Shown: positions 11,081 to 32,000 of the stretch, one piece after another
Numbering within the stretch: the first letter of the stretch is position 1
Layout of the letters: every line of letters begins with the position of its first letter
From: Trichodesmium erythraeum IMS101
Lineage (GTDB): Bacteria; Cyanobacteriota; Cyanobacteriia; Cyanobacteriales; Microcoleaceae
Reading direction: 5' to 3'
Assembly (NCBI RefSeq): GCF_000014265.1
Contig: NC_008312.1
Location: 870,001-902,000, forward strand
DNA: 32,000 nucleotides
Notes under the pieces: generated by a model
Told to the model about the DNA's origin: nothing
The model's input: only the letters and a program-made list of their open reading frames with translations
Databases searched by the model: none
Program-made: the position numbers and the translations under genes

Positions 11081-11100
11081 TTTTTGATCAGGAGGTAAAG

Positions 11101-12333: not shown

Positions 12334-12740
12334 ATGATTCCCCAAGAATACCTTGACTGGGAGGAGAAACAACCGATTAAATATGGATATATGAACAGTC
12401 AGGTTTTGGCTATGACTGGGGGAACTATTCCTTATAATGAGATTAGTCTTAATTTGGCGACGGCCTTAAAAGCTCAGATGCGGGGTAAAGGGTGTAAAGT
12501 ATTAATGGCGGATGCCAAACTGGGAGTATCAGGAAAAAGGCCTTTTTATTATCCTGATGTCATGGTAACTTGCGATCAAAGAGACCGACGTGCTACTAAA
12601 ATTATTTATCATCCTTGCTTAGTAGTAGAGGATTTTGTCTTGGAGGAAGTAGGGGAATACTAGAGTATGGGAAATTTAGGGGTTTTCTATACAATGTCTG
12701 TACTGAGTTCATTAATCTGAAAACTGCTGCATAATAACTA
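12334..12740 (+). pseudogene. Uma2-family (DUF820) endonuclease relic, frameshifted and truncated
   Basis: The first ~98 codons follow the Uma2 pattern ('EYLDWEEKQPIKYGYMNSQVLAMTGG...NLATALKAQMRGKGCKVLMADAKL...YYPDVMVTCDQRD...HPCLVVE'). The frame then ends at 109 aa, against ~190 aa as I recall for intact members of this family. Family-like residues ('EYGKFRGF...TEFINL') continue in the +1 frame to about 12735. Confidence 0.6.
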
Positions 12741-12851
12741 TAAAAATTGAGAAAATTTTGCCCTGGCTCCAATCTAAAACATTATGGAAAATTATAGTGA
12801 CATATGTCTTCCAAACACCCAGTTTCTTAATAATGAGCCAAAGCAATTAGA

Positions 12852-16705: not shown

Positions 16706-16747
16706 GAATTGTCCCATTTTGAATTTGCCAGGCGATCGCTTTCACTA

Positions 16748-16836
16748 GATCAGGACTTACCTACACAGATCAAAATATACACTATCTATAGTGGGTTGAC
16801 AGCGGCTACTAGATAATTGGTTCTGTGTAAGTCCTG
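16748..16836. repeat. Inverted pair of a short dispersed repeat (CAGGACTTAC..ACACAG / CTGTGTAAGTCCTG)
   Basis: 16751-16768 'caggacttacctacacag' is the reverse complement of 16823-16836 'ctgtgtaagtcctg' except for a 4-nt insertion. A third copy, 'gtgtaagtcctgatca', lies at 3848-3863. Confidence 0.6.
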
Positions 16837-17568
16837 TATGAATATTATTTAAATGCTTATGATCAAAAATTGGCACTTCCAAGTTGGGCTTCGTTTTCAT
16901 GTACAACCTACAATATTATAATGTGGTTGTTCCTGGGAACTTTTCCCCCATGACTTCCCACAGGCCTTGACTGTGTATGGTGGTTTACCAAAAATGGCAG
17001 GAGTCTTTGACTCTAGCAAGGAATTTACCATAGCCGATGGGCTAATGTCTGCCAACAAGAGGGACGAAACCCAGAACCCACAGGGGGGATAGTTGATAGC
17101 CAATCAGTAAAAACAACGGAGAAAGGAGGGGCAGAGGGGAGCTTTCATGGAAGCCAAAGGTCAAAACGCGGAAATGCTACATCCTAGTGTAAACCTTGAG
17201 ACTGGTATTAGTGGTGCTGGTTCATGTTGCCAATATATCAGATGTCACAGCTGGGAGGATATTGCTAGCAGAATTTAGTCTGTCAGTTCCAACTCTAAAA
17301 AAGGTTTGAGCTGAACGAGGTTATAGAGGCCAGGGGTTGTAGCAAGCCGCGGATGGATGGGAGCTTCATCAGGGGGTGGTTGAAGGTTATCAAAAAAGTT
17401 TTGGGTTTGAACTTTGAGGTTGGGTGGTGGAGAGAACTTTAGGTATGCTCGGACGCCAAAGACGACTTAGTAAAGATTAGGAGGGTTTAACGGAAGTAAG
17501 TGAATCTGTTGTTTATATAGCCATGATTTTACTGATGTTAAATTGTCTTGTCCCTTAAGGTTTTATTT
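16800..17568 (+). mobile_element. Decayed IS5-family (DDE_Tnp_1) transposase relic with multiple stops and frameshifts
   Basis: Frame-hopping translation gives 'GLRFHVQPTIL*CGCSWELFPHDFPQALTVYGGLPKMAGVFD...NPQGG', then 'GIVDSQSVKTTEKGG', then 'GKPKVKTRKCYILV*TLRLVLVVLVHVANISD', and finally 'ERTLGMLGRQRRLSKD*EGLTEVSESVVYIAMILLMLNCL'. These match the IS5-family pattern as I recall it (GCxWRxLPxDFPPWxTVYxYF / IIDSQSVKT / ERTFAWL..RRLSKDYE). No intact ORF remains and the element ends are not defined. Confidence 0.75.
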
Positions 17569-17760
17569 ACAGATATCCTCTTACAATAATTCTTTAACGA
17601 ATGAATAAGTTGGTGTTGAAGCTAGGAAAAAAAAAGGAGATTTTGAAACCCAACCCTTAAAGTTTATTGAGGATATGTGCTATAAAACTAATTGAAGTTA
17701 ATTTTATGGTTGACTTTAAAGGAGATCTATTAAATAGATGCTAAATTTGTCGTTTCAAGA

Positions 17761-19149
17761 ATGGCAAGTGAGGCAGTTTTTTTTGATTACGGGATATCAA
17801 GACTTAGTGAAATGATAGAATTAGAAAAAAGAGAATTAGAAAAAAGAGAATTAGAAAAAATAGTTCTTGTTTATAAAGAATTATTAGAAAAATTAACAGC
17901 CCCCAATGCTTCCCTATCAGAGCAAGAAGCTTTGAAAATTTTATTGGCTAGAGATGCTATTAGTAATGCTTTATATAATAACCTTGAAAATTGTAATTTG
18001 GCAGTAATAGAAATTAAAAAATTAGACAAAAAACTCAAAGATAATTCTGATAAATTAATTGATTTTATTATATTAGATGAATATCGAAATAATTTCCCGA
18101 GTTTACCGAAAAATTGGTGGTGGTATTTGGATATTGATGTTGAGAAAAAAAGAATCGAATCTCACCCTTGGAATCGTTTTGATGGGTTGATTAGAATTAT
18201 AAGAGTTATGGTTTGGACGGTAAATTTAACTCTTTTGGGAACTTTGGGTAGTCTTTTTTTAGTCAGTGGTTCTGGGTTACAGGGTGTGTTAGCTATTACT
18301 TTTCCTGGTATATTATCATTACTGCAAGCTCAAAGTGAGTTAACGGAAAACGGAAAAAAAGGGTTTGATAAGCTTTTAGAAAAAATTAAACTCCCTCAAC
18401 ATTATCAGGAGGAAGCAAAGCTTGGTTCTACTCTATTAATTACAGGATTATTGTTAACTATTTGGTTAAATTTACCATCTATTTCTAATAGCTACAAACT
18501 GAGGGGTAAAAAATCAGAAGAACAGGAAAATTTAGCGTTAGCAGAAGAGTCTTATCTACAAGCAATTAACTTATATCCTGATAATGTAGATGCTCGTTAT
18601 AAGTTAGCCAAGATTTATGAACAATTACAAGATTTTGATAGTGCTAAGAAACAACATATACTTGCAGCTCAAGCTGGGTTTATAGATGCCTATAATGATC
18701 TTGCTTATTTGTATATTCAGGAAGGTAAGAATGGGGAAGCGATAGATTTGCTTCGAAAAGCTTTGGGGCTTTTAGAGAAAAAAGAAAATCAATTTGAGGA
18801 GTTAATGGATAGCGAAAAGCTGAATTTGAAGACTCAAACATATAATATTTATAAAAATTTAGGATGGGCAAGATTTGAACAAAATCAATATGATGATTCT
18901 GTTTCCTATCTTTTACCGGCAATGGCAATTGCTCAGAACACCAAATATAAGCAATATATTCGGAGCCCAGGAGCAGCTTTTTGTATATACGCTAAAATAT
19001 TGTCATCAACAGATGAGAAATCCTCTGGGACTCAAAAAACTTGGCAACAATGCCGTGAATTGCTTGAATCTCGTTTAGCTGCCGGTGAAAGTATTAATCC
19101 TGAAGAGGATACATGGTTATATGAAGCTAAACAACAATTAAATAATTAA
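17761..19149 (+). CDS. Membrane protein with an N-terminal coiled-coil/ELEKR repeat, about 3 TM helices and C-terminal TPR repeats
   Basis: 462-aa ORF. Hydrophobic segments are 'VMVWTVNLTLLGTLGSLFLV', 'GVLAITFPGILSLL' and 'LGSTLLITGLLLTIWL'. TPR-like units follow ('AEESYLQAINLYPDNVDARYKLAKIYEQLQDFDSAKKQ', 'AYNDLAYLYIQEGKNGEAIDLLRKAL'). Confidence 0.6.
   Translation: MASEAVFFDYGISRLSEMIELEKRELEKRELEKIVLVYKELLEKLTAPNASLSEQEALKILLARDAISNALYNNLENCNLAVIEIKKLDKKLKDNSDKLIDFIILDEYRNNFPSLPKNWWWYLDIDVEKKRIESHPWNRFDGLIRIIRVMVWTVNLTLLGTLGSLFLVSGSGLQGVLAITFPGILSLLQAQSELTENGKKGFDKLLEKIKLPQHYQEEAKLGSTLLITGLLLTIWLNLPSISNSYKLRGKKSEEQENLALAEESYLQAINLYPDNVDARYKLAKIYEQLQDFDSAKKQHILAAQAGFIDAYNDLAYLYIQEGKNGEAIDLLRKALGLLEKKENQFEELMDSEKLNLKTQTYNIYKNLGWARFEQNQYDDSVSYLLPAMAIAQNTKYKQYIRSPGAAFCIYAKILSSTDEKSSGTQKTWQQCRELLESRLAAGESINPEEDTWLYEAKQQLNN
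17818..17862 (+). repeat. 15-nt in-frame tandem repeat x3 (gaattagaaaaaaga; ELEKR)
   Basis: Units at 17818-17832, 17833-17847 and 17848-17862. The first two are identical and the third differs by 1 nt (17861, g->t). Confidence 0.9.
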
Positions 19150-19555
19150 ATAAATTAAGTAATGGAAATAAATAATGATAAATTATATGTTAAATTGAAA
19201 AGAAAAATATAGGCTGCATTGACTGTAATAATTGTGGGATAAGGAATGCTTCTTTTAAGTCATCCTTCCCATATTTACCCTTTATGTTGGGCGAAATCCT
19301 CAATTTATTAAAGGCGCAATGGAAGAACTTTCGCCCAGCTGGATCTGCTATCACTCTGAGTAGCGAGAACAACACTAAACTAAATAGTAATACTTAGGTA
19401 AGAGTTTTAGAGAGCGATTTTCCGATCAGGAAGGAAAAAGCCTTCTCTTCTTTATAAAAAAAAAACTTATGAGACTAACATTAATAAATATTAAATATAC
19501 TATAATCTTATAAGATACAAGTAGTAAATAAAAATTACACAACAGAAAAGCAACA

Positions 19556-20587
19556 ATGGTAAATTTTTCCCTGAGTTTGAAAAGAAAAATCCAAACTGCA
19601 TTGACCTTAACAGTAATGGGATGGGCTATGCCTGCCTTCAGTGCTCCCACTCATATCTTAATTAATGTTGAGGGCAATGTCCAAGTCAAAAAGTCAAAAT
19701 GGAAAGACTTTAATAAAATTGAGGCTGGTATCACTCTCAACAGTCAGGACAAAATTAAAGTAATAGATAATGCTTCGGCTACAATTTATTGTAGTGATAA
19801 AACTAAATGGATAATAGATAAACCAGGAATACATTCGATTTCTGACGGATGTTCAGAAGGAAGCAAAATTTCTTTATTAGATCAAGGTAATAATCATTCC
19901 ACCCGCGGCCCTAAAGCTCCTGCATTTGAAGAAAGTCTAGAAAAACTGCCTTATTTGGTTAGTCCTCGTAAGACTTATGTTTTGAATGCTCCATTGACTA
20001 TTCGTTGGAATGAAGTTCCCGGGGCTACTAACTATAAAGTTAAGGTGGAAGACTGGGAAAGAGAAACGAAGGAATGCCAAATTAGTTATGATGGGGAATT
20101 GGAGCCTGGTGGATATTATCGTATAACTATAGTAGCGAATAATGGGGCTACTTCTCAAGATGAATATGGCAGCGAGGAGAAAAATAATAATTGGTTTATG
20201 GTATTAGAGGATGAGGAAGCAGAGGCTTTACAGGAGGAATTACGGCAGAAGCTAGAGGCGCTCAAGGAGGCTGATAAAACTCAAGAGGAAAAAGATTGGA
20301 GTTTAGCCATGTTTTACCTAGACAAAGAATTAAATTTTGACGTTATTCAGATATTGGAAGGCTTAGTTAAATCTGGAAGTCAAAAATTAGAGGTTTATTA
20401 TTTGTTGGGAGACATATACCAAAAGCTAGGGTTGAATTTAATGGCAAAAGACATTTTTCAGCAAGGGCTGGCTCTGAGTGTGCAGCAGGGGAATAGTGAA
20501 TATAAGGGGAGCATCCAACAGAGATTAGAGTGGCTGGAACCTTCTTTGGGTATTATTAACAAAGCAGGAGAGTTATTGAGGAGGTAA
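19556..20587 (+). CDS. Secreted protein with a FecR-like N-terminal beta domain, a small beta-sandwich, an acidic coiled coil and C-terminal TPR
   Basis: Signal peptide 'KIQTALTLTVMGWAMPAFSA'. 'VEGNVQVKKSKWKDFNKIEAGITLNSQDKIKVIDNASATIYCSD' follows the FecR-type G.V...R....W..A..G..L...D.I pattern. Further elements are 'PLTIRWNEVPGATNYKVKVED', 'EEAEALQEELRQKLEALKEADKTQEEKD' and TPR-like 'YYLLGDIYQKLGLNLMAKDIFQQGLAL'. Domain calls are by eye only. Confidence 0.55.
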   Translation: MVNFSLSLKRKIQTALTLTVMGWAMPAFSAPTHILINVEGNVQVKKSKWKDFNKIEAGITLNSQDKIKVIDNASATIYCSDKTKWIIDKPGIHSISDGCSEGSKISLLDQGNNHSTRGPKAPAFEESLEKLPYLVSPRKTYVLNAPLTIRWNEVPGATNYKVKVEDWERETKECQISYDGELEPGGYYRITIVANNGATSQDEYGSEEKNNNWFMVLEDEEAEALQEELRQKLEALKEADKTQEEKDWSLAMFYLDKELNFDVIQILEGLVKSGSQKLEVYYLLGDIYQKLGLNLMAKDIFQQGLALSVQQGNSEYKGSIQQRLEWLEPSLGIINKAGELLRR

Positions 20588-21246
20588 ATAGAAGTTATTT
20601 AGTCCCCCATAAACTGATTACTCAATTAATAGGAGGAAACTAAATGATAGTAGTTAATGAGCTAGCAGTCAAAAATATGGCCTGCAAATCAAGAAACACT
20701 TCTATTACTTCCCAAGAAATAATTCTCATGGATGGGTAGTGATGCTAACTGGAGAGGGTTAGTTAGACATTTCAACTATGGAGCAGAATAGTACGGACAG
20801 GAATTAATCAAAACTAATAGGTACTTTTCTATTTCTAAGGGTTGCTTTCAATACGTTTACGTAGCAAGAAAATGGTGTTTAACTGTAACAGAGTAGTTTT
20901 TAGAGTAGGGTAGTTAGTATGATCATGATATAAAAGTCGGTAGAAATATTTTGGTTGCTGGGTTAGCAAAGTCAGTTTATGGAGGGACTGTAAGACTACA
21001 AGGAAGTAAATATATGAAGGTGGAAGCATTGAAGGAGAAAGACTCTACAGCTCAATGTTACGGACTCTCGGCATACCTCATGAACCTACCTCGGGAGAAT
21101 GTCAGGAAGCAACTTAATCAAATTGTCTATATCTTAATTTATTTGCTGTTGTTAGGGGCATCTAACTACCTTAAGTAGGCCAAGCTAATGTATACACTAA
21201 TATAAGCGCTTATGATTAAAATGACAAATAAATTTTAAATAATTTC

Positions 21247-21275
21247 TTGATTTTTGTATGGTAAGGATTTATAAT
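21247..21275 (+). promoter_or_regulatory. Candidate sigma70-type promoter for the giant gene (TTGATT-17 nt-TATAAT)
   Basis: -35 TTGATT at 21247-21252, an exact 17-nt spacer, and consensus -10 TATAAT at 21270-21275, about 65 nt upstream of the start codon. The region is AT-rich, so a chance match is possible. Confidence 0.3.
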
Positions 21276-21342
21276 AATACCTATAAATTAAATAAAAAGT
21301 CAATATAATTTTCAACATCTACCACAATAACAAAAGCCTGTG

Positions 21343-24300
21343 ATGAAACCTAATAGCTCAAAACTCTGCACCATAAAAGCTCTGAGTTTAATACTAGGCA
21401 CATTAGCCACCACTCCCGCCAACTCCCAGCCCATAACCCCGGCTAAGGATGGCACCAATACTACTGTTACTCCACAGGGCCAACAATTTAATATTAAAGG
21501 TGGGACTCGCAGTGGTGCTAATGTATTTCACAGCTTTGATAAGTTTAATGTGCACTCTGGTCAAACTGCCAACTTTGTCACGACCCCGGATACTCGCAAT
21601 GTTCTCGGACGAGTTAAGGGAGGCGCTTCTTATATTAATGGTCTTATTCAGGTTCTAGGTAGCAGCTCTAACCTCTTCTTAATGAACCCCGCAGGCATAA
21701 TGTTTGGCCCAAACGCCAGCCTCAATGTACCTGCGTCATTCAGTGTTACTACTGCTACTGGTATTGGTTTTGACCAGAATAATTTCTGGTTCAAGGCTAT
21801 GGGGACTAATGACTATTCAAATTTGCTCGGAAGCCCTAGTGGTTATAGGTTTGATGTTTCTAAACCTGGTTCTATTGTTAATGAAGGAAGTTTAACTTTA
21901 AATTCTGGAGAAAATTTAACTTTATTAGGGGGAACTGTTGTTAATACAGGGGAACTCTCTAGCCCTGGGGGTAATATTACTGTCACTGCTGTCGAAGGTG
22001 GTAGTACCCTGAAAATATCTCAACCAGGACATTTGTTAAGTTTAGAGGTACCCCTAGAGGATGGAGAAAATATTTCTAATATTGATCCTCTATCTTTACC
22101 AGAGTTATTAGCTGGTGGAGGAGATGTCGTTGAGGCTACATCTGTTATTGTTAAAGAGAATGGTGATGTGGTTTTGACCGGTTCAAATACTATGGTGGCT
22201 GAGACTCCGGGAACGGCAACTATTTCGGGAAAGATAGATGTATCAACTACTGCTAGTTCTCTCCAAAATGAGGGGGGTGCTAGTTTTGGAAGCCAAGTTA
22301 ATGTGTGGGGCGATCGTGTGGCTCTTATAGATACAAATATCAAGGCTGATGGCAAAAATGGGGGTGGAACTGTATTAATAGGAGGAGATTTTCAAGGGTT
22401 GGGTATAGTTCCTAATTCTCAGCATACTTTTGTTAATAATAATTCATTTATTTCTGCGGATGCTATCACAAATGGTGATGGAGGTCAAGTTAGAATTTGG
22501 TCGGATGGTATTACTAATTTTGCGGGAAATATTAGTGCTAAAGGCGGCACATCTTCGGGAAATGGAGGGTTGGTTAAAATTGGGGGAAAAGAACAATTAA
22601 TCTTTGATGGAAAGGTGGATGTTACTGCGGCTTTAGGGACTGAAGGTACGATTTTATTGGACCCAGAAAGTGTGACGGTGGGAGAGGATAATTCGGAAGG
22701 TGAAAAGGAAATTGTCGAGGATAATTCGGAGGTTTCTGAGACAGAAAATACTGATAATTATGATGGGGAAATTATTGAGGATAATTCCGAGGTTTCTGAG
22801 ACAGAAAATACTGATAATTCCACAACAAAAAATACTGATAATTTAGAAGATAAAGAAACAGAAAATCCTCTTGATCCTTTTGCTGCTGATGAGAATTCTG
22901 ATGTGACTATTTCGGCGGATAATTTAGGGGAATTATCGGGGAATGTGATTATTGATGCTGATAATGATATTACCATAAATGAAAGGATAGAAACTGATTC
23001 TTCTGTGGAGTTAAAGGCGGGTCGAAGTATTAATATAAATGCGGATATTGATACTAAGAGTGGAAATGGAAATATTGATTTATTGGGTAATAATGATGAG
23101 ATGAATTTGGCTAACCGTTCTGATGGGAAAGCTTCGATAAATCAATTGGATGGAACAATTTTAAATGCTGGAAGTGGTGGAATTAATATTAAGTTGGGAA
23201 GTTTAGGAGAGGTAGGTGATATAAATCTGGGAAATTTAAGGACGACAGGGAAGGTTTTGGTTGATGCAAATGGGGGAAATATTGTTAGAGTTTCTGAGAA
23301 TTCTTTGATAAATGCGGGGAGTGTTTTGTTTAGAACTTCTGGGAATGGAGGTATAGGTTTTGTTGGTGAACCTTTGCGGTTGGATGTGCAGAATTTGGAG
23401 GCGGTTTCTGGTAGTGGTGGGGTGTTTTTTGATGTGGGAAATGTGAATATTGGTGGTGTGAGTGAGGATGTAGATGGTATTGCTACTTTTGGAGGAGATG
23501 TTGATATTAAGAGCGCGGGAAATGTGACTTTAAATGAAACTATTTCTAGCAATGAGGTTGTAGAGAATAATTCTGAGGCGACATCTACAGAAAATACGGA
23601 GGTTGTTGATGGAGGTGGTGGGATAAATATTGAAGCGGCGGGAGATATTGTGGCTACGGGTAGTGGTATTAAAGGTGGTGGGGAAGCTGTTTCTTTGTCT
23701 GGGACTAATATTAGGATAAATGATGAATTTGATGAGACTTCTGGGGATGCGGATGTTAAGTTGTCGGCGACAAATGATATTGTTGTTGAGGATATAGAGG
23801 ATGATGCATTGGAGTTTATGCCTGGGAGGGGGAAGATAGAATTTCGTGCGGATCTGGATGGGGATGGGTTTGGTCTTGTGGAGATGTTGGATAATAAGCC
23901 GGATGTTGGGAGTAACCCTGATGTTTTTGATAATGGGGCGGATACTATTAAGACTAATGGGCGAGGTTTGACTATTGCTGGTGCTGGTCTGGTTTTGGGG
24001 AATGTTGATACTTCTTGGTTGCCTGTTTATTCTGGTGGGGAGTTGTTGAAGGCGATCGATGTGGATGAGGGGGGGCCGATACCTCCGGGAGTGGAGGATA
24101 AAAGTGGATTAATTTCAGAGGAAGATTTTGATTGGTCTTCTTCGGGGGTAGATGATGAAGGTCGTTATTATGGTGGCAAGATAACCATTGACGGCCAATC
24201 TTATAATGTTTATTATGATGGTTATGATGATGAGAAGAAAGTATCGAAATATACTATTAACGGCCAATCTTATTATCAAGCTGGAGTTGAAGGTAAACTT

Positions 24301-27300
24301 TATTATGTGCCTGCTACGAAGACTTGGGAAGATACTGCAACATTTACTTTTACTGTAGATGGTGACTTGGGAACTGTAAAAAATATAGATGTTCGCTTTT
24401 CTGCGGCACATACTTACAATAAGCAGTTAGAGGTTAGTCTGGAATCACCCCAAAAAACGAAAGTACAATTGTTTACAGGTGTTGGTAGTTATGGAGGAGA
24501 GAACTTTCAGGATACTGTGTTGGATGATAATGCTTCTAGAAGTATTGATAATGGCCTTGCTCCGTTTGATGGTACATATCGTCCCCAAGGAAGTTTAGCA
24601 GATTTTAATGGAGAAAATCCTAATGGAACTTGGACTTTGACGGTAAAAGATACGAATATCGAATATGGTAACGGCACTTTATACAGAGCTGGTGAGACTG
24701 CTCACTGGGGAACTACTGCCATAGGTACACAACTGTTGCTGCGTAATCCTCTTGTTCAGATTGCTGCTGGAGGAAATGGTGGAGCGATCAACCTAGAAGC
24801 AACTCATGGTGATATTAGTGTGGGAAATATTCGTAGTTTGAGCGAAACTGCTAATGGGGGAAGAATTGACCTGAATGCTAATAAGGATATTATTTCTGGC
24901 CTGATTAATTCTAGTTCAGAGCGAGGCAATGGAGGTGATGTCAACCTTAATGCGATCTCTGGTGAGATTAGTACTTTTTCATTGGATACTTCATCATTTG
25001 ATGGAGATGGAGGTAGTGTGGAGATGAAGGCGTTAGGGGATATTACTACTAAAGCAGAGATGATGACTGATTCTGGTGAGTTTTTTGTTGATGATTATGG
25101 ATATGTAGAAAATACCAGCGGTGGTGGTGGCAATGCTGGTAATATCAAGATAGAAAGTACAGAAGGTTCAATTGATACTAAAGCAGGTTCAATTTCTGCT
25201 GGTTCAGTTTCAGGAAATGGAGGAGCCATTGATTTGGATGCTGGTGGCGATATCAAGACAGAAAACCTCTATCCCGGGTCCTATTCCAGGTCAGGCAACT
25301 CAGGAAATGGAGGAGCCATTGATTTGGATGCTGGTGGCGATATCAAGACAGAAAACCTCTATCCCGGGTCCTATTCCAGGTCAGGCAACTCAGGAAATGG
25401 AGGAGCCATTGATTTGGATGCTGGTGGCGATATCAAGACAGAAAACCTCTATCCCGGGTCCTATTCCAGGTCAGGCAACTCAGGAAATGGAGGAGCCATT
25501 GATTTGGATGCTGGTGGCGATATCACTACACAATACCTCTATTCCAGCTCCTATTCCGAATCAGGCAACTCAGGAAATGGAGGAGCCATTGATTTGGATG
25601 CTGGTGGCGATATCAAGACAGAAAACCTCTATCCCGGGTCCGATTCCAGCTCAGGCAACTCAGGAAATGGAGGAGCCATTGATTTGGATGCTGGTGGCGA
25701 TATCACTACACAATACCTCTATTCCGGGTCCGATTCCTGGGAAGACAACTCATATTCCGGGTCCTATTCCGGGTCTGGCAAGTCAGGAAATGGAGGAGCC
25801 ATTGATTTGGATGCTGGTGGCGATATCACTACACAAGACCTCGATTCCAGGTCCTTTTCCTATGGAGGCGACTCAGGAAATGGAGGAGACATAACACTGA
25901 ATGCAAAACAAATTAACCCTCCAGAAGACGGAAATGCAGAAAAACTAACAATCTATACATTTTCTGTAGGTAGCACTGACTCTAAAAAAGCTGGAGACGT
26001 TAACATTACCACCAACAATCTCAGTAACACAGATATATTAACACTATCCTCCCACTCTGAATCAGGAAAAGTAACAATAAAAAGTAAGACACAAGAACCA
26101 CTTCAAATCAAAGACTCATCCATTATCACTAGTGAACAAGTAACAGTAGAAATCTTCGGGGAACAAATACAAATAGAAACAGGAAATACCCAATCAGGCG
26201 ACGTCTTCATCAACAGTGACGGCGACCTCAACCTAAACAACGTCACCATAGAAAGCGACACCAAAAGTAACCAAGCCGCCGGAGACGTCAACATCTACAG
26301 CCGCGGCAACATCACACTCGAAAACACCGACATCATCAGCACCACCAACTCCCAAGGCAACGCCGGCCAAATCACCTTAGAAACCAACGAAAACATAGAA
26401 CTCACCAACAACAGCAAAATCCTAGCCAACACAGAAGGAACCGGAAACGCAGGTCAAATAAACATAGAAGCCAACAACCTCATCCTAGACCAAAACACCA
26501 AACTCATCACAGAAACCGCAAGGGCCGGCAACCCCGGAGACATAAAAATCCAAGCCAACACCATAGACATAGGAGAAGGCGCTAAAGCCAGCACCACAGT
26601 CTTAACAGGTTCAACCAGCACCGGAGAAGGAGGCAACATCACCATCAACACAAACAAACTCAACGTCACAGGAAAACTCGGAATATTTGCCGAAACCGAA
26701 GCCAGCAAAAACGCCGGTATCCTTCGCATCTCACCCTACAAAAACAACCCCGACCTAGACATCACCTTCAAAAACGACGGCTTCATCTCCGCCTCCACCT
26801 CATCCACAGGCAACGGAGGCAACATATTCATCAAAGCCCCAGAAAACATCAACATAACAGGCCAAGGGTTCATTGCCACCAAAACATCAGGCACAGGTAA
26901 CGCCGGAATTATCGACATCAAAACCAACAACCTGAGAATATCCAATGGAGTCAAAATCAATGCTTCCACAGAAGACCAAGGCAACGCCGGCGCAATCAAA
27001 ATCAACACCACAGACTTCACCCTAAAAAAAGGAACAAGTCTGACAACAGAAACCAACAGCGCCGGACTAGCCGGAAACATAGAAATAAACACCAAAAAAC
27101 TCACAATAGGACAAAACGCCCAAATAAGTGCCACAGCACTAGAAGGAGCCAGCAACAAAGAAGCAGGCGGCAACATCACCATCAACGCCAATAACCTAGA
27201 CATATCAGGAAAACTAGGAATATTCGCGGAAACCGCAGGAGAAAGCCCCGCAGGCACCCTCACCCTGAACCCATATAAAAACAACCCCAACCTAAATATA

Positions 27301-30300
27301 GAATTCAAACAACAAGGCTTCATTTCTGCTCGCACCACCTCCAGTGGCAACGGAGGCAACATAAATATTCAAGCACCAGAAAAAATCAACATTACAGGAG
27401 ACGGAAAAATATCAGCGGAAACCACAGGGAGTGGAAATGCAGGCACCATCAATATCCAAACAGAAAACCTCAACCTATCAGAGCAAGTAGCCATAAGTGC
27501 CGAAACCAACAGTCAAGGTCAAGCCGGAAACATTGAAATTAACTCCCAAACAGTTACCATAGGAAAAGGCACAGAAATAAGTGCAACAGCCGGAAAAAAA
27601 GCAACAAGCACCGGAGATGGAGGCAACATCACCATCAACACCAACGACCTAGAAATCTCAGGAAAACTAGGAATATTCGCGGAAACCAAAGGAGCATCAA
27701 ACGCCGGAACCTTAACCATCACCCCTTATAAAACCAACCCAGACCTCAATAGCAAAACCGACCCAAACATCAATATTACCTTCACCGACCAAGGCTTCAT
27801 TTCTGCTAGCACCAAATCTCTAGGAAAGGGAGGCGACATCAATATATTAGCACCAGAAAACATAAATATTACAGGAGATGGTCGGATAACAGTTGAAGCC
27901 AAAGGTAGTGGAGACGCAGGCATTATTAACATTGAAACAAAAAACCTGACAATAGCCGAAAACACAAAAATATCAGCATCCACATCCGACAGCGGAAACG
28001 GAGGCGAAATCAAAATTAATTCTAGTGAAACATTCCAACAACAAGGCCGAATATTAACAGAAACCACAGGAACAGGAGATGGAGGCATTATCAACATTGA
28101 AGCAGGAGAAATAACTGCGCCTAACAGCAAGATATCAGCTAAAAGTACCGGGGCGGGCAACGCAGGTACAATAGATATTACTGCCCAAGGAGATATTACC
28201 ACAGGAGTTGTTACCTCCGCCGCCAAAAATAAAAGAGAAACTGCTGACGGAGGTAGCATCAGTATTACCAGTCAACAAGGAAAAATTAACGCCACCCGAG
28301 CAATTCAATCATTTTCAGAAGGAGGCAACGCCGGAAATGTTACCCTCAAAGCCCAAACAGACATAACTGCCAATACCATAAGTTCTCACGGAAAGCAAGA
28401 GGGTGGTCAAATAACCATCAGATCAGAAACCGGAAATATTGACACCAGTAGTGGTAAATTCTTAGCCAACTATTCAGGAGGCGGTGACGCGGGAGACATT
28501 ACAATGGAAGCACCCCAAGGAAATATTACCACAAATAATATCTATTCCTACGCCGACGGAGACGGAGGTCAAATAAACATTAAAGCCGGAAACAATATTA
28601 ATATAGAAGCAAACAGTAATATTATTTCTGCATCAGAGCCACCAAGTGAGGGAAACAGTGACAAACAAGGAAAAGGAGGAGATATTACTCTAGAAGCAGG
28701 CAACAATATTAATACTACAGCAGCTAATATATATTCTGGTGCCAACGAGGGCGACACAGGACAAATTGATATTACTGCAGATAACGCAATAGAAACAGGT
28801 AAAATAGACTTAGCATCAGGTTTTGTCAGACAAGAAACAAAAGTAAACCAAAACCTGGTCCTCATCCCTAAACCAGGAGAACCAGCCACCAAAGGAAAAG
28901 CTGGAGACATCAGACTCCGCAGCAGAAACAGTACAATAGACACCACCGGTGGCACAATAAATTCTCGTTCCCCAGACGGCACCGGAGATATTATTATCAA
29001 TGCCAAAGGAAATATTAGCACAGGGAAATTAGAAGCCAGCGCCCTTAACCCAGACAACCCTACCACAGGTGGAGACGTTAATATTACCAGCGAGCAAGGA
29101 GAAATTAATGCAACTCAAAACATAGAAACCTTCTCAGAAAAAGGTACAGCAGGAGATGTAAATATTACTGCAGCGGGTCATATCAATACAAACACCATTC
29201 GTTCAGATGGAATGGAACAGGGAGGAGATATTAATATTAGGAGCGATAGTGAAAGTAGCATAGATGCAGCAGGAGCATTACAAACATATTCAGATGCAGG
29301 AACAGCAGGAAACGTCAACCTCACATCCCCAGGGAATGTTAATATTAGCGGCATTCGTTCAGAAGGAATGGAGCAGGGAGGTGATATTACACTGAAGAGT
29401 CAAGGAGGAGAAATTAACTCTACAGGCGATATAGACTCCTATTCAAAACAAGGAAAAGGAGGATACGTCAAAGTAGATGCCCCAGAAAGAGTAAATTTAG
29501 CAAATGTATCATCCTACGGCATGACAGAAAGTGGTGACTTAATTACTCAGAGCCAACAAGCAGAAGTTAATACAGGAAATGTCACAACACAAGCTTCAGA
29601 GGGAAAGAGTGGACGTATAGTCATCAACGGAACAGAAGTAGGTACGGGAAATTTAAGTTCTATCGCAGGAACAAGCGCCGGGGAAATTAATGTAGAAGCA
29701 ACAGATGGTTCTATTGCCACCTATGATATAGAAATGACATCAGGTGGTACACTAGGAGCTTTAACACTGAGAGCACCAGAAAATATTAACACAGGAGACA
29801 TTCGTCAAAAAGCAGGAGAGGGAGATGCGAATGCAAATATATTTTCAGGAGGAAACCAAACCACAGGAAATATTAGTCAAGAAGCAGGCAATAATACTAA
29901 CCTAAATCAAAATGCAGGAGAGAATATAAATGCAGGGAATATCGAACAAAATGCTGGTAATAATACTAACCTAAATCAAACTGCAGGAGAGAATATAAAT
30001 GCAGGGAATATCGAACAAAATGCTGGTAATAATACTAACCTAAATCAAACTGCAGGAGAGAATATAAATGTAGGGAATATCGAACAAAATGCGGGTAATA
30101 ATACTAACCTAAATCAAACTGCAGGAGAGAATATAAATACAGGGGATATCGAACAAAATGCGGGTAATAATACTAACCTAAATCAAACTGCAGGAGAGAA
30201 TATAAATACAGGGGATATCGAACAAAATGCGGGTAATAATACTAACCTAAATCAAACTGCAGGAGAGAATATAAATACAGGGGATATCGAACAAAATGCT

Positions 30301-31950
30301 AGTAATAATACTAGTATTTATCAAATTGCAGAAGGAGAGATTAATACACCAGTCATTAATCAAACTTTCGGTAATGAGACTACGCTCAATCAAATATCAG
30401 TAAGAGATGTTAATACACCAGTAATTTCTAATAACAATATACCTAATAATCAAGGACTTAATCAAGAAAATTTCTCTAATAATAACAATAACAATATTGA
30501 GAATAATTCCACTACAAATTCCTCAAACAATAAAAACATTTCATCAACCCTTACCCAGTCTCAAAGGTCTGAATTAATTTCAACTTCTACCCCCAGCAAC
30601 AATAACCAAACAACTAATACAAATACAGCCCAAGAACAAACAGAATCATCTATTAATAGTACAACGGATACCCAAAAAATCTTAAACATAATTGATACCG
30701 TCAATACCAATTCCTTGACAGTTGCGACTGGTTCAGACCAAGTAATAACAATGTTAGAACAAAACCTTACTAACGAATATTCTAATTACTTTGGAACAGA
30801 TTTTAAGGAACAATTTATTAACCAAAAAACACCCCGAGAAATCTTAACCGATATGGCTGCTAAAACAGGAAAAGAATCTGCAGTTGTTTATATTAATGCT
30901 TATCCAGAGGAATTACAAATAATTTTATATACCAAAGATGGTCAACCTATTCTTAAAACTATCCCGGAAGCTAACCGTAAAAAATTAGAGAAAGTAGTTA
31001 TAAATTTCCTCAAATTAACGACAAGTCCTGCCTATCGTGATTTTAATAGTTATCTATCACCAGCAAAACAATTATATGATTGGTTCATTGCACCTATATC
31101 AGCAGAATTAGAAGCAGCAAATATCGATACCTTATTGTTCAGTATGGGTGAAGGTTTACGTATTTTACCAGTGGCAGCATTACATGATGGAAAGCAATTT
31201 TTAATTGAGAAATATAGCCTAAGTTTAATTCCGAGTATCAGCTTAATGGATACAAATTATCGCCCACTTCAAGGTACTCAAGTATTAGCTATGGGAGCTA
31301 GTAAATTTATCAATGAAAAACCTTTACCAGCAGTACCTGTGGAGATAGAAACAATTTCTGAACAGTTATGGGAAGGTAGTAAATTTTTAAACGAAGAATT
31401 TACCAAGAATAATTTGTTAACTCAAAGAAAAAATTATCCCTATCCTATTATTCACTTAGCTACCCATGCAACATTTAATAGAGGAAAACCTAGTAATTCT
31501 TACATTCAGCTATGGGGTAATGAACAAATAAAGTTAGACCAAGTGCGGGAGTTGGGTTGGAGTACCCCATCGGTTGACTTGTTGGTATTGTCTGCTTGTC
31601 GCACTGCTGTAGGAAATAGAGAAGCGGAATTAGGGTTTGCAGGGTTAGCAGTAGCAGCGGGAGTGAAGTCAGCCTTAACGAGCCTTTGGACTGTAAGTGA
31701 TGAAGGGACATTGGCATTAATGACAGAGTTTTATACTCATTTGAATGATGCTAAGATCAAGTCAGAGGCATTAAGACAGGCGCAGTTAGCAATGCTGCAA
31801 GGGCAGGTGCTTATTACAGGTGGGGAGTTGAGGGGAAGCAGCACTCGTGGTGGGGTGGAGCTACCTTCGGCGTTCGCAAATGTAAACAATCAAAATTTAT
31901 CTCATCCTTATTACTGGGCAGGGTTTACTATAGTTGGTAGTCCTTGGTAA
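21343..31950 (+). CDS. Giant TpsA-like exoprotein: signal peptide, TPS/haemagglutination domain, beta-helix shaft, P-domain, repeat arrays and a C-terminal CHAT caspase-like protease domain
   Basis: One uninterrupted 10.6-kb frame (GTG 21340 / ATG 21343). Signal peptide ends at 'TTPANS|Q'. TPS motifs are 'NVFHSFDKFNV' and 'LFLMNPAGIMFGPNASLNV'. G/N/I/T/D-rich beta-helix coils run for about 2,800 aa. The P-domain block is 'DVRFSAAHTYNKQLEVSLESP...NGTWTLTVKD'. The CHAT block is 'IIHLATHATF...LLVLSACRTAVG...HPYYWAGFTIVGSPW'. Confidence 0.9.
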   Translation: MKPNSSKLCTIKALSLILGTLATTPANSQPITPAKDGTNTTVTPQGQQFNIKGGTRSGANVFHSFDKFNVHSGQTANFVTTPDTRNVLGRVKGGASYINGLIQVLGSSSNLFLMNPAGIMFGPNASLNVPASFSVTTATGIGFDQNNFWFKAMGTNDYSNLLGSPSGYRFDVSKPGSIVNEGSLTLNSGENLTLLGGTVVNTGELSSPGGNITVTAVEGGSTLKISQPGHLLSLEVPLEDGENISNIDPLSLPELLAGGGDVVEATSVIVKENGDVVLTGSNTMVAETPGTATISGKIDVSTTASSLQNEGGASFGSQVNVWGDRVALIDTNIKADGKNGGGTVLIGGDFQGLGIVPNSQHTFVNNNSFISADAITNGDGGQVRIWSDGITNFAGNISAKGGTSSGNGGLVKIGGKEQLIFDGKVDVTAALGTEGTILLDPESVTVGEDNSEGEKEIVEDNSEVSETENTDNYDGEIIEDNSEVSETENTDNSTTKNTDNLEDKETENPLDPFAADENSDVTISADNLGELSGNVIIDADNDITINERIETDSSVELKAGRSININADIDTKSGNGNIDLLGNNDEMNLANRSDGKASINQLDGTILNAGSGGINIKLGSLGEVGDINLGNLRTTGKVLVDANGGNIVRVSENSLINAGSVLFRTSGNGGIGFVGEPLRLDVQNLEAVSGSGGVFFDVGNVNIGGVSEDVDGIATFGGDVDIKSAGNVTLNETISSNEVVENNSEATSTENTEVVDGGGGINIEAAGDIVATGSGIKGGGEAVSLSGTNIRINDEFDETSGDADVKLSATNDIVVEDIEDDALEFMPGRGKIEFRADLDGDGFGLVEMLDNKPDVGSNPDVFDNGADTIKTNGRGLTIAGAGLVLGNVDTSWLPVYSGGELLKAIDVDEGGPIPPGVEDKSGLISEEDFDWSSSGVDDEGRYYGGKITIDGQSYNVYYDGYDDEKKVSKYTINGQSYYQAGVEGKLYYVPATKTWEDTATFTFTVDGDLGTVKNIDVRFSAAHTYNKQLEVSLESPQKTKVQLFTGVGSYGGENFQDTVLDDNASRSIDNGLAPFDGTYRPQGSLADFNGENPNGTWTLTVKDTNIEYGNGTLYRAGETAHWGTTAIGTQLLLRNPLVQIAAGGNGGAINLEATHGDISVGNIRSLSETANGGRIDLNANKDIISGLINSSSERGNGGDVNLNAISGEISTFSLDTSSFDGDGGSVEMKALGDITTKAEMMTDSGEFFVDDYGYVENTSGGGGNAGNIKIESTEGSIDTKAGSISAGSVSGNGGAIDLDAGGDIKTENLYPGSYSRSGNSGNGGAIDLDAGGDIKTENLYPGSYSRSGNSGNGGAIDLDAGGDIKTENLYPGSYSRSGNSGNGGAIDLDAGGDITTQYLYSSSYSESGNSGNGGAIDLDAGGDIKTENLYPGSDSSSGNSGNGGAIDLDAGGDITTQYLYSGSDSWEDNSYSGSYSGSGKSGNGGAIDLDAGGDITTQDLDSRSFSYGGDSGNGGDITLNAKQINPPEDGNAEKLTIYTFSVGSTDSKKAGDVNITTNNLSNTDILTLSSHSESGKVTIKSKTQEPLQIKDSSIITSEQVTVEIFGEQIQIETGNTQSGDVFINSDGDLNLNNVTIESDTKSNQAAGDVNIYSRGNITLENTDIISTTNSQGNAGQITLETNENIELTNNSKILANTEGTGNAGQINIEANNLILDQNTKLITETARAGNPGDIKIQANTIDIGEGAKASTTVLTGSTSTGEGGNITINTNKLNVTGKLGIFAETEASKNAGILRISPYKNNPDLDITFKNDGFISASTSSTGNGGNIFIKAPENINITGQGFIATKTSGTGNAGIIDIKTNNLRISNGVKINASTEDQGNAGAIKINTTDFTLKKGTSLTTETNSAGLAGNIEINTKKLTIGQNAQISATALEGASNKEAGGNITINANNLDISGKLGIFAETAGESPAGTLTLNPYKNNPNLNIEFKQQGFISARTTSSGNGGNINIQAPEKINITGDGKISAETTGSGNAGTINIQTENLNLSEQVAISAETNSQGQAGNIEINSQTVTIGKGTEISATAGKKATSTGDGGNITINTNDLEISGKLGIFAETKGASNAGTLTITPYKTNPDLNSKTDPNINITFTDQGFISASTKSLGKGGDINILAPENINITGDGRITVEAKGSGDAGIINIETKNLTIAENTKISASTSDSGNGGEIKINSSETFQQQGRILTETTGTGDGGIINIEAGEITAPNSKISAKSTGAGNAGTIDITAQGDITTGVVTSAAKNKRETADGGSISITSQQGKINATRAIQSFSEGGNAGNVTLKAQTDITANTISSHGKQEGGQITIRSETGNIDTSSGKFLANYSGGGDAGDITMEAPQGNITTNNIYSYADGDGGQINIKAGNNINIEANSNIISASEPPSEGNSDKQGKGGDITLEAGNNINTTAANIYSGANEGDTGQIDITADNAIETGKIDLASGFVRQETKVNQNLVLIPKPGEPATKGKAGDIRLRSRNSTIDTTGGTINSRSPDGTGDIIINAKGNISTGKLEASALNPDNPTTGGDVNITSEQGEINATQNIETFSEKGTAGDVNITAAGHINTNTIRSDGMEQGGDINIRSDSESSIDAAGALQTYSDAGTAGNVNLTSPGNVNISGIRSEGMEQGGDITLKSQGGEINSTGDIDSYSKQGKGGYVKVDAPERVNLANVSSYGMTESGDLITQSQQAEVNTGNVTTQASEGKSGRIVINGTEVGTGNLSSIAGTSAGEINVEATDGSIATYDIEMTSGGTLGALTLRAPENINTGDIRQKAGEGDANANIFSGGNQTTGNISQEAGNNTNLNQNAGENINAGNIEQNAGNNTNLNQTAGENINAGNIEQNAGNNTNLNQTAGENINVGNIEQNAGNNTNLNQTAGENINTGDIEQNAGNNTNLNQTAGENINTGDIEQNAGNNTNLNQTAGENINTGDIEQNASNNTSIYQIAEGEINTPVINQTFGNETTLNQISVRDVNTPVISNNNIPNNQGLNQENFSNNNNNNIENNSTTNSSNNKNISSTLTQSQRSELISTSTPSNNNQTTNTNTAQEQTESSINSTTDTQKILNIIDTVNTNSLTVATGSDQVITMLEQNLTNEYSNYFGTDFKEQFINQKTPREILTDMAAKTGKESAVVYINAYPEELQIILYTKDGQPILKTIPEANRKKLEKVVINFLKLTTSPAYRDFNSYLSPAKQLYDWFIAPISAELEAANIDTLLFSMGEGLRILPVAALHDGKQFLIEKYSLSLIPSISLMDTNYRPLQGTQVLAMGASKFINEKPLPAVPVEIETISEQLWEGSKFLNEEFTKNNLLTQRKNYPYPIIHLATHATFNRGKPSNSYIQLWGNEQIKLDQVRELGWSTPSVDLLVLSACRTAVGNREAELGFAGLAVAAGVKSALTSLWTVSDEGTLALMTEFYTHLNDAKIKSEALRQAQLAMLQGQVLITGGELRGSSTRGGVELPSAFANVNNQNLSHPYYWAGFTIVGSPW
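21427..22210 (+). other. TPS (two-partner secretion / filamentous haemagglutinin N-terminal) domain
   Basis: The conserved FHSF..FNV block (aa 61-71) and an NPNGI-type motif, here NPAGI (aa 116-120, nt 21685-21699), in the spacing usual for TpsA proteins. The C-terminal boundary is approximate. Confidence 0.8.
22684..22850 (+). repeat. 60-nt acidic tandem repeat, about 2.5 copies (E-I-[VI]-EDNSEVSETENTDN)
   Basis: 43-nt cores at 22717-22759 and 22777-22819 differ by 1 nt, flanked by partial copies. A related acidic motif 'ENNSEATSTENTE' recurs at about 23560-23600. Confidence 0.85.
24334..24745 (+). other. Proprotein-convertase-type P-domain with no adjacent subtilisin domain
   Basis: 'TFTFTVDGDLGTVKNIDVRFSAAHTYNKQLEVSLESPQKTKVQLF...FQDTVLDDNASRSIDNGLAPFDGTYRPQGSLADFNGENPNGTWTLTVKDTNIEYGNG' follows the P_proprotein pattern (hallmarks 'D..A...i....aPf.G.yrP...L..F.G....G.W.L.v.D'). 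No D/H/S subtilase motifs occur upstream. Confidence 0.7.
25211..25903 (+). repeat. 90-nt (30-aa) in-frame tandem array, about 8 units (NSGNGGAIDLDAGGDIKTENLYPGSYSRSG)
   Basis: Units start at 25211, 25301, 25391, 25481, 25571, 25661, 25784 and 25874. The first three (25211-25480, 270 nt) are identical at every base. The sixth unit carries a 33-nt insertion and the last is partial. Confidence 0.95.
26443..28200 (+). repeat. Three full copies and one partial copy of a 450-540-nt super-repeat, each of about 6-7 beta-helix coils
   Basis: Unit starts at 26443 (GNAGQINIEANN), 26896 (GNAGIIDIKTNN), 27433 (GNAGTINIQTEN) and 27910 (GDAGIINIETKN). The shared internal landmark 'GGNITIN.N.L..(S/T)GKLGIFAET...PYK.NP.L.I.F...GFISA.T.S.G.GG.I.I.APE.INITG.G' appears in all three full units. 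Confidence 0.8.
29884..30366 (+). repeat. 69-nt (23-aa) in-frame tandem array, 6 good units plus 1 degenerate unit (AGNNTNLNQTAGENIN.G.IEQN)
   Basis: Unit starts at 29884, 29953, 30022, 30091, 30160, 30229 and 30298 (degenerate). Units 4-6 (30091-30297, 207 nt) are identical, and units 2 and 3 differ by 1 nt. Confidence 0.95.
30750..31947 (+). other. CHAT domain (clan CD caspase-like cysteine protease fold)
   Basis: Predicted His in 'PIIHLATHATF' (H3376, nt 31465-31467) and Cys in 'DLLVLSACRTAVG' (C3420, nt 31597-31599). The CHAT-typical tail 'LSHPYYWAGFTIVGSPW' lies at the exact C-terminus. The N-terminal boundary is approximate. Confidence 0.85.
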
Positions 31951-32000
31951 TAAAAATGACCAACTAACATTCAACATCTTCAAATGTAGTCAACTTATTC

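Follow-up and report, generated by a model that had tools for sequence, protein, structure and literature searches.

What a caspase-like protease might do at the end of a giant exported fibre is the question raised by a gene of the filamentous cyanobacterium Trichodesmium erythraeum IMS101. The gene lies near the end of the window, a stretch of 32,000 nucleotides (assembly GCF_000014265.1, contig NC_008312.1, positions 870,001 to 902,000), and forms a single unbroken open reading frame (ORF) at 21340..31950 of the plus strand, with 3,536 codons if counted from the GTG at 21340. A previous sequence-only reading of the window, made by a model without database searches, had described this ORF as a TpsA-type exoprotein of the two-partner secretion (TPS) pathway carrying a C-terminal CHAT protease as its cargo, probably from a filamentous cyanobacterium. 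The ORF was present as described, and the source was as expected. The adjacent ATG at 21343 is the probable start codon, giving a protein of 3,535 amino acids (aa). Residues are numbered here from this ATG, and the residue numbers of the sequence-only reading, counted from the GTG, are higher by one.

The known substrates of two-partner secretion are adhesins, cytolysins and CdiA toxins, nearly all of them from pathogenic proteobacteria, and CHAT proteases such as separase, Craspase and SAVED-CHAT are tightly switched intracellular enzymes. By its architecture, the TPS-CHAT gene is predicted to encode a genuine TpsA-type (type Vb secretion) exoprotein. In the reading favoured here, which is given about an even chance, the CHAT domain is the functional cargo, that is, a specific limited-proteolysis enzyme whose place of action is extracytoplasmic, be it the cell surface or the envelope, and whose substrate is distinct from the shaft to which it is attached.

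Architecture of the TPS-CHAT protein

The protein consists of a signal peptide, a TPS domain, a proximal acidic shaft, an insert with a P-domain, a distal shaft, a linker and the CHAT module, in this order (Table 1). Exactly three Pfam domains were found in the full protein at E <= 0.01, PF05860, PF01483 and PF12770. The TPS and CHAT domains proposed earlier were thus both detected by profile hidden Markov models, and the P-domain, for which a check had been suggested, scored above its cut-off. The full-length protein had no match in NCBIfam; its isolated N-terminus matched TIGR01901 (adhes_NPXG) with 76 bits (cut-off, 29). By inspection, the signal peptide starts with a basic n-region, continues with a hydrophobic core and ends in the cleavage motif A-N-S, of the A-x-S type. 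The TPS motifs noted from the sequence were located at aa 60-70 (NVFHSFDKFNV) and aa 115-119 (NPAGI, of the NPxGI type). With phmmer, the TPS domain matched the secretion domains of EtpA (8cpk, E = 1.9e-12) and HMW1 (2odl, E = 6.6e-8). The domain is kept in all 45 family members compared, and homology to the relatives reaches approximately aa 300.

At the other end of the protein, the CHAT domain is complete and the His/Cys dyad is intact, as had been claimed. The AlphaFold2 model of the last 402 aa, built with an alignment of 44 sequences, had a predicted local distance difference test score (pLDDT) of 92.7 and a predicted template modelling score (pTM) of 0.93 and showed two alpha/beta lobes. 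A comparison of the fold with separase, Csx29 and caspases, which had also been proposed, was made with Foldseek. The best matches were Csx29, the TPR-CHAT protease of Craspase (E = 5e-14; TM-score, 0.61), separase (E = 1.7e-8), SAVED-CHAT (E = 9e-8) and DdvA (E = 2.6e-7), and caspase-1 and gingipain were matched far more weakly. When the CHAT alignment was used as a profile against the PDB sequences, no meaningful match was obtained, including none to Csx29, separase, SAVED-CHAT or DdvA, and therefore the fold comparison alone ties the module to the solved CHAT proteases. Csx29, separase and SAVED-CHAT share with the module the two-lobed combination of a pseudo-protease and an active protease and the His-Cys dyad. 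They differ in that they are cytoplasmic, have RNA, securin or cyclic nucleotides as allosteric switches and are linked to TPR or SAVED domains, and the sequence identity is 10-16%. No TPR repeats were detected in the TPS-CHAT protein with Pfam; the TPR association, from which the CHAT family takes its name, is typical but not obligatory. The PADLOC defence-system models gave a weak, partial match to BovA (CHAT) only, and therefore the protein is not assigned to a known defence system.

In the model, the catalytic His and Cys each lie at the end of a beta-strand, as in caspases. Both residues were invariant in 44 of 44 diverse homologues, and in a wider set of modules the His was kept in 89 of 89 and the Cys in 88 of 89. 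The ratio of nonsynonymous to synonymous substitution rates (dN/dS) was 0.36 in comparison with a 96%-identical copy. The invariant dyad is a strong signature of an active enzyme, and with a dN/dS below 1 it speaks for selection on the predicted catalytic competence of the module. The mature protein, with 3,507 residues, has a single cysteine, the catalytic C3419, where approximately 35 would be expected from the 0.98% Cys content of the neighbouring genes (P ~ 4e-14). The sole non-catalytic cysteine of the whole protein is C9 in the signal peptide. Most of 46 relatives also have a lone Cys at position -116 from the C-terminus, as do 69 of 96 representative clusters. Such a lone Cys in approximately 3,500 residues is likewise a strong signature, being the hallmark predicted for an extracytoplasmic protein.

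The single module of the 89 in which the Cys is replaced belongs to a 2,088-aa protein of Dapis sp. BLCC M126 (NZ_JBNHER010000229.1; locus L045, 4916-11182, plus strand) with three TIR domains, 15 WD40 repeats and a CHAT domain. This module is 62% identical to that of the window and nested inside the TPS-linked clade, its catalytic Cys is changed to Thr, and it is the sole cytoplasmic-type fusion of the module. From its sequence, an intracellular scaffold of the conflict type appears to have taken over an exported-protease module in a catalytically dead state, possibly for use as a decoy or sensor.

The shaft region of approximately 2,800 aa is acidic and repeat-rich, and the net charge of the mature protein is -222. 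A single-sequence AlphaFold2 model of aa 1740-2140 (401 aa, approximately 11% of the shaft) was all-beta with periodic short strands (pLDDT, 89). Its top Foldseek matches were right-handed beta-helices, namely HMW1 (TM-score, 0.52), EtpA, pertactin, Ag43 and tailspikes, all of them weak and none with E < 1e-3. This model is in line with the beta-helical shaft of the sequence-only reading, and a beta-helix is likely for the full length of the shaft. Tandem Repeats Finder placed the 90-nt array at 25210-25752 (6.0 copies, 93% matches), with seven occurrences of the motif GGAIDLDAGGDI, and the 69-nt array at 29890-30313 (6.1 copies, 97% matches). The identity within the 90-nt, 69-nt and 60-nt arrays (93-97%) would imply a very recent expansion, and the length of the shaft probably varies rapidly. 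No sequence relative of the P-domain region was found among the PDB entries. The residues just before the P-domain, aa 916-995 (24088-24327), form a Tyr/Gly-rich stretch of approximately 80 aa (GRYYGGKITIDGQSYNVYYDGYDDEKKVSKYTINGQSYYQAGVEGKLYY) that is unique to this protein and missing in all relatives with the P-domain cassette. The N/S/T/Q-rich linker that had been recognised from the sequence lies at aa 3022-3133, consists of 58% N, T and S and is presumably disordered. S/N/T/P-rich linkers stand before the CHAT module throughout the family.

Table 1. Features of the TPS-CHAT gene and of the region directly upstream (window positions; residues numbered from ATG 21343)
Feature	Position	Strand	Basis or remark
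Sec-type signal peptide, aa 1-28 (MKPNSSKLCTIKALSLILGTLATTPANS, then QP)	21343..21426	+	Read by inspection of the sequence
TPS domain, aa 36-247	21448..22083	+	Pfam PF05860, E 3.6e-36
Proximal shaft, aa ~301-830, acidic	22243..23830	+	Common to ~15-22 relatives, ~50% identity
60-nt tandem duplication in proximal shaft	22707-22819	+	Tandem Repeats Finder; encodes E/D/N-rich low-complexity sequence
Lineage-specific shaft insert with P-domain, aa ~830-1170	23831..24852	+	Cassette common to only ~8 Okeania/Dapis/Trichodesmium relatives
Proprotein-convertase-type P-domain, aa 1013-1113	24379-24681	+	PF01483, E 9.3e-8, 32.5 bits vs cut-off 21
Distal beta-solenoid shaft (predicted), aa ~1171-2849, G/N/T/I/S-rich	24853..29889	+	AlphaFold2 segment, Foldseek, 65%-identity collinearity with Okeania proteins
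Near-identical tandem array, 90-nt units (30 aa, ...GNGGAIDLDAGGDI...), ~6-7 copies	25210..25861	+	Tandem Repeats Finder, motif positions
Near-identical tandem array, 69-nt units (23 aa, NAGNNTNLNQTAGENINxGxIEQ), ~6-7 copies	29890..30407	+	Tandem Repeats Finder, motif positions
N/T/S/Q-rich low-complexity linker, aa 3022-3133	30406..30741	+	Composition N29, T19, S17 of 112 residues
NSLTVA motif, aa 3123-3128, end of linker	30709-30726	+	~10 residues before CHAT module, at linker/domain border
Two-lobed CHAT module, aa 3134-3535: N-terminal pseudo-protease lobe and C-terminal active lobe (predicted)	30742..31947	+	Pfam, AlphaFold2, Foldseek
Pfam CHAT domain, aa 3240-3533	31060-31941	+	PF12770, E 1.9e-69, profile positions 3-289 of 289
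Catalytic His codon CAT, H3375 (H3376 in sequence-only reading)	31465-31467	+	Follows beta-strand 236-245 of model
Catalytic Cys codon TGT, C3419 (C3420 in sequence-only reading)	31597-31599	+	End of beta-strand 280-288 of model
Possible sigma-70-like promoter, TTGATT-17-TATAAT	21247..21275	+	Consensus scan; ~65 nt before start codon
343-aa envelope protein, clear signal peptide, weak C-terminal TPR	19556-20587	+	Directly upstream of TPS-CHAT gene
462-aa envelope protein, internal transmembrane segments then TPRs	17761-19149	+	Directly upstream of TPS-CHAT gene

Distribution and forms of the family

A scan of 1.84 billion representative proteins gave 4,984 clusters at E <= 1e-30, of which the best 150 were inspected. 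In these 150, with protein lengths of 439-3,633 aa, the CHAT module invariably came last, at the extreme C-terminus. A TPS domain stood at the start in 96 of them, and most of the others were N-terminally truncated shaft fragments. Among 78 cyanobacterial loci from reference genomes, 46 complete ORFs of 776-3,412 aa with both TPS and CHAT domains were found, including a 2,905-aa gene on a finished Nostoc chromosome (CP026681.1). The closest CHAT homologues were from Trichodesmium (97%), followed by Okeania, Dapis and Hydrocoleum. Genomes have many paralogues, tandem ones are frequent, and four copies lie on one Okeania contig. As judged from these sequences, the joining of TPS and CHAT is the dominant architecture of a CHAT clade with thousands of representative clusters.

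Conservation was found at both ends of the protein, and the shaft between them was variable or missing, from ~0 to ~3,000 aa. CHAT was conserved in 43 of 45 relatives at ~50% identity and reached 77% identity across genera. Two short forms belong to the same CHAT clade, proteins of ~470 aa with a Sec signal peptide only, which come from Nostoc, Lyngbya, Microcoleus and Waterburya and group as a coherent subclade, and minimal TPS-linker-CHAT proteins of 776-900 aa. In the tree of CHAT modules, the short, signal-peptide-only and giant forms were interleaved. At two loci, the TPS-CHAT gene is split by a single interruption into two adjacent ORFs on the same strand (L026, 1956-3812 and 3830-11206; L044, 3-3824 and 3884-11206), which are pseudogenes, sequencing errors or frameshifts. 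Several other ORFs that seemed to be TPS-only or CHAT-only were artefacts of runs of N in the shaft.

The sequence-only reading had mentioned that similar proteins with an FHA-type N-terminus and a CHAT domain are annotated in cyanobacteria and uncharacterised. This was correct on both counts, as the complete ORFs and clusters above and a full-text literature search, which found no published study of a TPS-CHAT protein, attest. The architecture is already visible to automatic annotation and hence not categorically new; it is an uncharacterised variation both on the cargo of TpsA proteins and on the use of CHAT domains. For cyanobacterial TPS systems in general, it was stated that "no functional data exist" (PMC2878562), and a 2007 paper suggested a role of cyanobacterial haemagglutinin-like exoproteins in filament or sheath formation. 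In a Trichodesmium preprint, the clade-enriched genes were "large repeat-rich proteins" annotated as CHAT, haemagglutination and TPR, with conserved hypothetical proteins as best matches. In Trichodesmium, which forms colonies and is important worldwide as a nitrogen fixer, the family is expanded (preprint 10.1101/2022.04.20.488952). The near-identical arrays inside the gene explain why short-read assemblies shatter it, and the family is therefore systematically under-seen. It is large, real and unexplored but neither rare nor unannotated.

Candidate functions of the CHAT module

The CHAT domain is read as cargo on two grounds: release would lack a passenger in the signal-peptide-only and minimal forms, and the shaft acts as a spacer of variable length. 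Comparison of the homologues suggests that the shaft is the evolutionarily plastic part and the CHAT module the constant, selected and predicted-active part. The interleaving of signal-peptide-only, minimal and giant forms further points to a module that is autonomous from the shaft. The protein would cross the inner membrane through Sec, and its TPS domain would be recognised by a TpsB barrel of the ShlB/FhaC type encoded elsewhere in the genome. The shaft would be threaded out through this barrel and fold on the cell surface. The CHAT domain would either end at the distal tip of the fibre or stay tethered on the periplasmic side, and its target would be cut beyond the cytoplasm, on the surface of the cell or within the envelope.

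Enzymatic or cytolytic TpsA passengers, as opposed to adhesive ones, include LepA of the LepA/LepB pair of Pseudomonas aeruginosa, which is a secreted protease, and ShlA and HpmA. In contrast to the window protein, these are of another catalytic class, have no CHAT domain, are far shorter and have an adjacent tpsB gene. The cysteine protease domain of MARTX and TcdA/B (clan CD, C80) is also embedded in a giant secreted protein and processes its own polypeptide. It differs from the CHAT domain of the window in being internal and not C-terminal, in its activation by inositol hexakisphosphate (InsP6) in eukaryotic cells and in its secretion route, and it is not of the CHAT family.

Several observations weigh against CHAT as a cargo with a separate extracytoplasmic substrate. 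No ShlB or POTRA gene was found within the window, which includes 21 kb upstream of the TPS-CHAT gene. TpsB is missing within 10 kb at most related loci, and the best 120 homologues of Oscillatoria TpsB, all from other genera, included none from Trichodesmium. Exposure to oxygenated seawater would make a thiol protease liable to oxidation, and this speaks for a location in the periplasm. The C-terminal parts of FhaB and CdiA stay periplasmic, so the CHAT domain may never reach the outside. Conserved ends with a variable middle would be equally expected if CHAT were a secretion or processing module.

In favour of a TpsB-dependent export, T. erythraeum was reported to have two-partner secretion system (TPSS) barrels, e.g., Tery_3487, fused to a haemagglutinin-like domain (PMC2878562, PMC3297439). 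At three Oscillatoria loci, a transporter with ShlB and POTRA_2 domains adjoins short TPS-CHAT genes. In the finished Nostoc genome CP026681.1, one cluster contains TpsB, COP23, two secreted trypsin-like proteases and the 2,905-aa TPS-CHAT gene. The TpsB family has 56-66% identity between genera that carry TPS-CHAT genes.

The extreme C-terminal position behind the linker, the conserved ends with a hypervariable shaft, as in secretion modules, and the N-P/S-L-T-V-A motif enriched ~10 aa before the module all fit a different explanation, which is possible though held with distinctly lower confidence. According to this, CHAT is a built-in maturation or release protease. In the periplasm, it would plug or anchor the fibre at TpsB and cleave its own linker, or in trans those of sister paralogues, and the shaft would be the real functional part, as an adhesin or a filament or sheath component. 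Such an enzyme would be a self-contained version of the processing of the FhaB prodomain and of the linker autoproteolysis proposed for DdvA. A periplasmic location, like that of the retained C-termini of FhaB and CdiA, would suit a thiol enzyme. FhaB (with FhaC), HMW1 and EtpA are like the window protein in their Sec signal peptide, in the TPS domain at the N-terminus, where an NPxGI-type motif is present, in the great length of the passenger, for which a right-handed beta-helix is likely in the window protein as well, and in a C-terminal region set off from the shaft. EtpA and HMW1 gave sequence matches to the TPS domain and are also among the best, if weak, fold matches of the shaft model. 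The window protein differs from FhaB in the lack of the Pfam FHA repeat families, in a C-terminus formed by a folded CHAT protease, where FhaB has a prodomain that other proteases degrade, and in the non-adjacent TpsB, and from all three in its cyanobacterial host.

To our knowledge, the only characterised extracytoplasmic CHAT protein is DdvA, a periplasmic TPR-CHAT anti-sigma factor of Myxococcus (PDB 8rot), which sets a precedent for a CHAT domain on the far side of the inner membrane. DdvA shares with the window protein the fold and a flexible linker beside the protease, and a regulated cleavage of the linker, in trans, was proposed (PMC11506125). It differs in having an inner-membrane transmembrane anchor, TPRs in cis, no TPS domain and no fibre and in signalling to a sigma factor of the extracytoplasmic function (ECF) type. 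Caspase-like domains are also known as releasing peptidases of large secreted toxins (PMC3482391). Against a release protease stand the conserved clade of signal-peptide-only CHAT proteins, which carry no passenger to release, and the minimal TPS-linker-CHAT proteins, which have almost none. Moreover, the Nostoc TPS-CHAT gene is adjoined by two dedicated secreted trypsin-like proteases that could do the processing, and the upstream motif is present in only ~1/4 of the members. In the form [N/S]-[P/S]-L-[T/A/S]-V, the motif was found at the linker/CHAT border in 25-30% of 174 distinct family members, in comparison with 1-6% in control windows. The N-P-L-T-V-A type is weak and confined to a subclade and was not accepted as a self-cleavage site for these reasons; the NSLTVA-type motif may extend the fold at its N-terminus or serve for recognition or cleavage.

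Another explanation, which is considered improbable, is outside-in signalling. Here, a surface fibre would sense contact or damage, and the tethered periplasmic CHAT domain would be allosterically activated and cleave a periplasmic or membrane signalling protein, by analogy with DdvA. CHAT proteases such as Craspase, separase and DdvA are typically allosterically switched and have a single substrate, the disordered linkers are long enough to cross the barrel and the periplasm, and secreted DUF928 and trypsin-like proteins show a loose association. Nevertheless, the explanation is purely inferential, no conserved partner gene was found beside the Trichodesmium, Okeania and Dapis genes, and the two envelope TPR proteins encoded upstream in the window are not conserved neighbours.

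The sequence-only reading had compared the layout with CdiA/FHA-type proteins that place a variable effector at the C-terminus. The part concerning CHAT as a C-terminal cargo is favoured by the signal-peptide-only and minimal forms, but the comparison with a variable CdiA-type effector failed, since the C-terminus is constant (50-77% identity across genera) and it is the shaft that varies. In a contact-dependent toxin of the CdiA type, the fibre would bind a neighbouring cell and deliver CHAT, which would cleave an essential target, and kin would be protected by an immunity protein. The window family shares with CdiA/CdiB/CdiI the TpsA fibre, the enzymatic domain at the extreme C-terminus and the multiple paralogues, with many per genome. 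It differs in the absence of PT-VENN, DUF637 and FHA-repeat domains by Pfam, in a TpsB that is usually unlinked and in the lack of a conserved downstream immunity-like gene among 81 related genes, where small downstream ORFs formed no family beyond orthologous pairs. In a survey of polymorphic toxin systems (Zhang et al. 2012, PMC3482391), caspase-like domains were proposed as releasing peptidases or C-terminal toxins. These Tox-Caspases and caspase-like releasing peptidases resemble the window protein in that a caspase-fold His/Cys peptidase is placed inside, or C-terminal of, a large secreted filamentous protein, with self-release or a toxin function proposed, but the window family is without polymorphism and without an immunity gene. 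The routes listed for them are the type II, VI and VII secretion systems (T2SS, T6SS, T7SS) and Photorhabdus virulence cassettes (PVC), the type V system (T5SS) is not among them, and the phyletic list for T5SS does not include cyanobacteria (PMC3482391). On the sequence evidence, the toxin explanation is very unlikely and is regarded as largely excluded.

The least probable explanation, an artefact in which the ORF is an assembly chimera or its CHAT end a decaying, non-functional remnant, is dismissed because 46 complete TPS-CHAT ORFs exist in other assemblies, including the finished Nostoc chromosome, the dyad is invariant with a dN/dS below 1 and long parts of the protein align with independently assembled homologues. 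The region aa 1005-3535, with the P-domain cassette, distal shaft, linker and CHAT, gave one continuous alignment (65% identity) with a 3,396-aa protein from an independent Okeania assembly, and a second Okeania protein aligned with aa 1-757 plus aa 1615-3535; a chimera of two genes, as envisaged in the sequence-only reading, was thus not found. What speaks for an artefact is the state of the assemblies. In the T. erythraeum metagenome-assembled genome (MAG) GBRTRLIN201, a contig with 100.000% identity to window positions 9556-21335 stops 5 nt before the start codon, and therefore short-read assemblies break exactly at the TPS-CHAT gene. This break fits the many "partial" database entries and the 93-97%-identical tandem arrays. 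Exact look-ups with either start codon found no exact protein copy on record, metagenome contigs scanned for an exact 51-nt stretch gave no match, and the homology search with the TPS domain for full-length Trichodesmium copies gave only fragments of <600 aa. A swap between near-identical paralogues during assembly is possible but would leave the architecture unchanged.

With CHAT read as a functional cargo, a more general proposal can be made, which is rather speculative. Filamentous cyanobacteria may hold a large unrecognised class of type Vb substrates whose constant payload is an active extracytoplasmic CHAT protease of the separase/Craspase type. This would either be carried on fibres of tunable length and cut surface proteins of neighbouring filaments or epibionts or be a periplasmic, contact-activated switch. 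If true, this could tie filament-filament contact or colony formation in Trichodesmium to the long-observed, unassigned caspase-like proteolysis of bloom collapse. The substrate of CHAT, once found, would define a new job for the TPS pathway and for the CHAT fold, and it could bear on filament adhesion, colony formation, epibiont interactions and programmed cell death in cyanobacterial blooms.

Gene neighbourhood and further observations

The genes upstream of the TPS-CHAT gene in the window encode a sodium:solute symporter and the two envelope TPR proteins of Table 1. The latter invite attention because TPRs are the classical companions of CHAT, but they were rejected as partners of CHAT, as they are not conserved neighbours of the family members elsewhere. 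The number of promoter-like sites in the consensus scan was not above the shuffled expectation, and the candidate at 21247..21275 is suggestive only.

In Microcoleus and Oscillatoria, TpsB adjoins a DUF928 protein and a transglutaminase-core protein, and DUF928 also flanks signal-peptide-only CHAT genes in Nostoc. Secreted DUF928 (PF06051) proteins were found at L082/L083 (8827-9693), L049 (16780-17592), L056 (11469-12287) and L058 (11366-12187). The recurrence of DUF928 hints at a wider TpsB/DUF928/CHAT functional module. Giant TPS-CHAT genes of Nostoc are flanked by genes for two secreted trypsin-like serine proteases (L084/L085, 7048-9673; L079, 161-2144; L080, 109-1206), and at L084 COP23 and TpsB also flank the gene. 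These trypsin-like neighbours may take part in processing or may themselves be cut by the CHAT protease.

Two independent short-read contigs (L086 and L087) match the window at 100% identity and break off 5 and 27 nt ahead of the ORF start, and therefore the 5' end of the gene is probably near-identical in several genomic paralogues. The best match in the scan of reference genomes had 77% identity. A copy from a Trichodesmium MAG (L001) is 97% identical at the protein level. The window ends 50 nt past the stop codon of the TPS-CHAT gene, and L001 from position 1751 onward had no similarity to window positions 31951-32000; other genes follow in L001. The similarity thus ends at the stop codon, and therefore L001 and the gene of the window are distinct genomic copies, L001 being either a paralogue or a rearranged copy, despite the 100% identity between the window and the upstream contig. 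For the same reason, L001 was rejected as a stand-in for the region downstream of the window.

Two further ORFs lie in the upstream part of the window. At 12334-12663 (plus strand), a 109-aa ORF of the Uma2 family covers the first ~100 of 172 profile positions and is probably truncated. At 12852-13628 (minus strand), a 258-aa ORF had weak, sub-threshold matches to DUF4394 and PEP-CTERM and is possibly an exosortase substrate.

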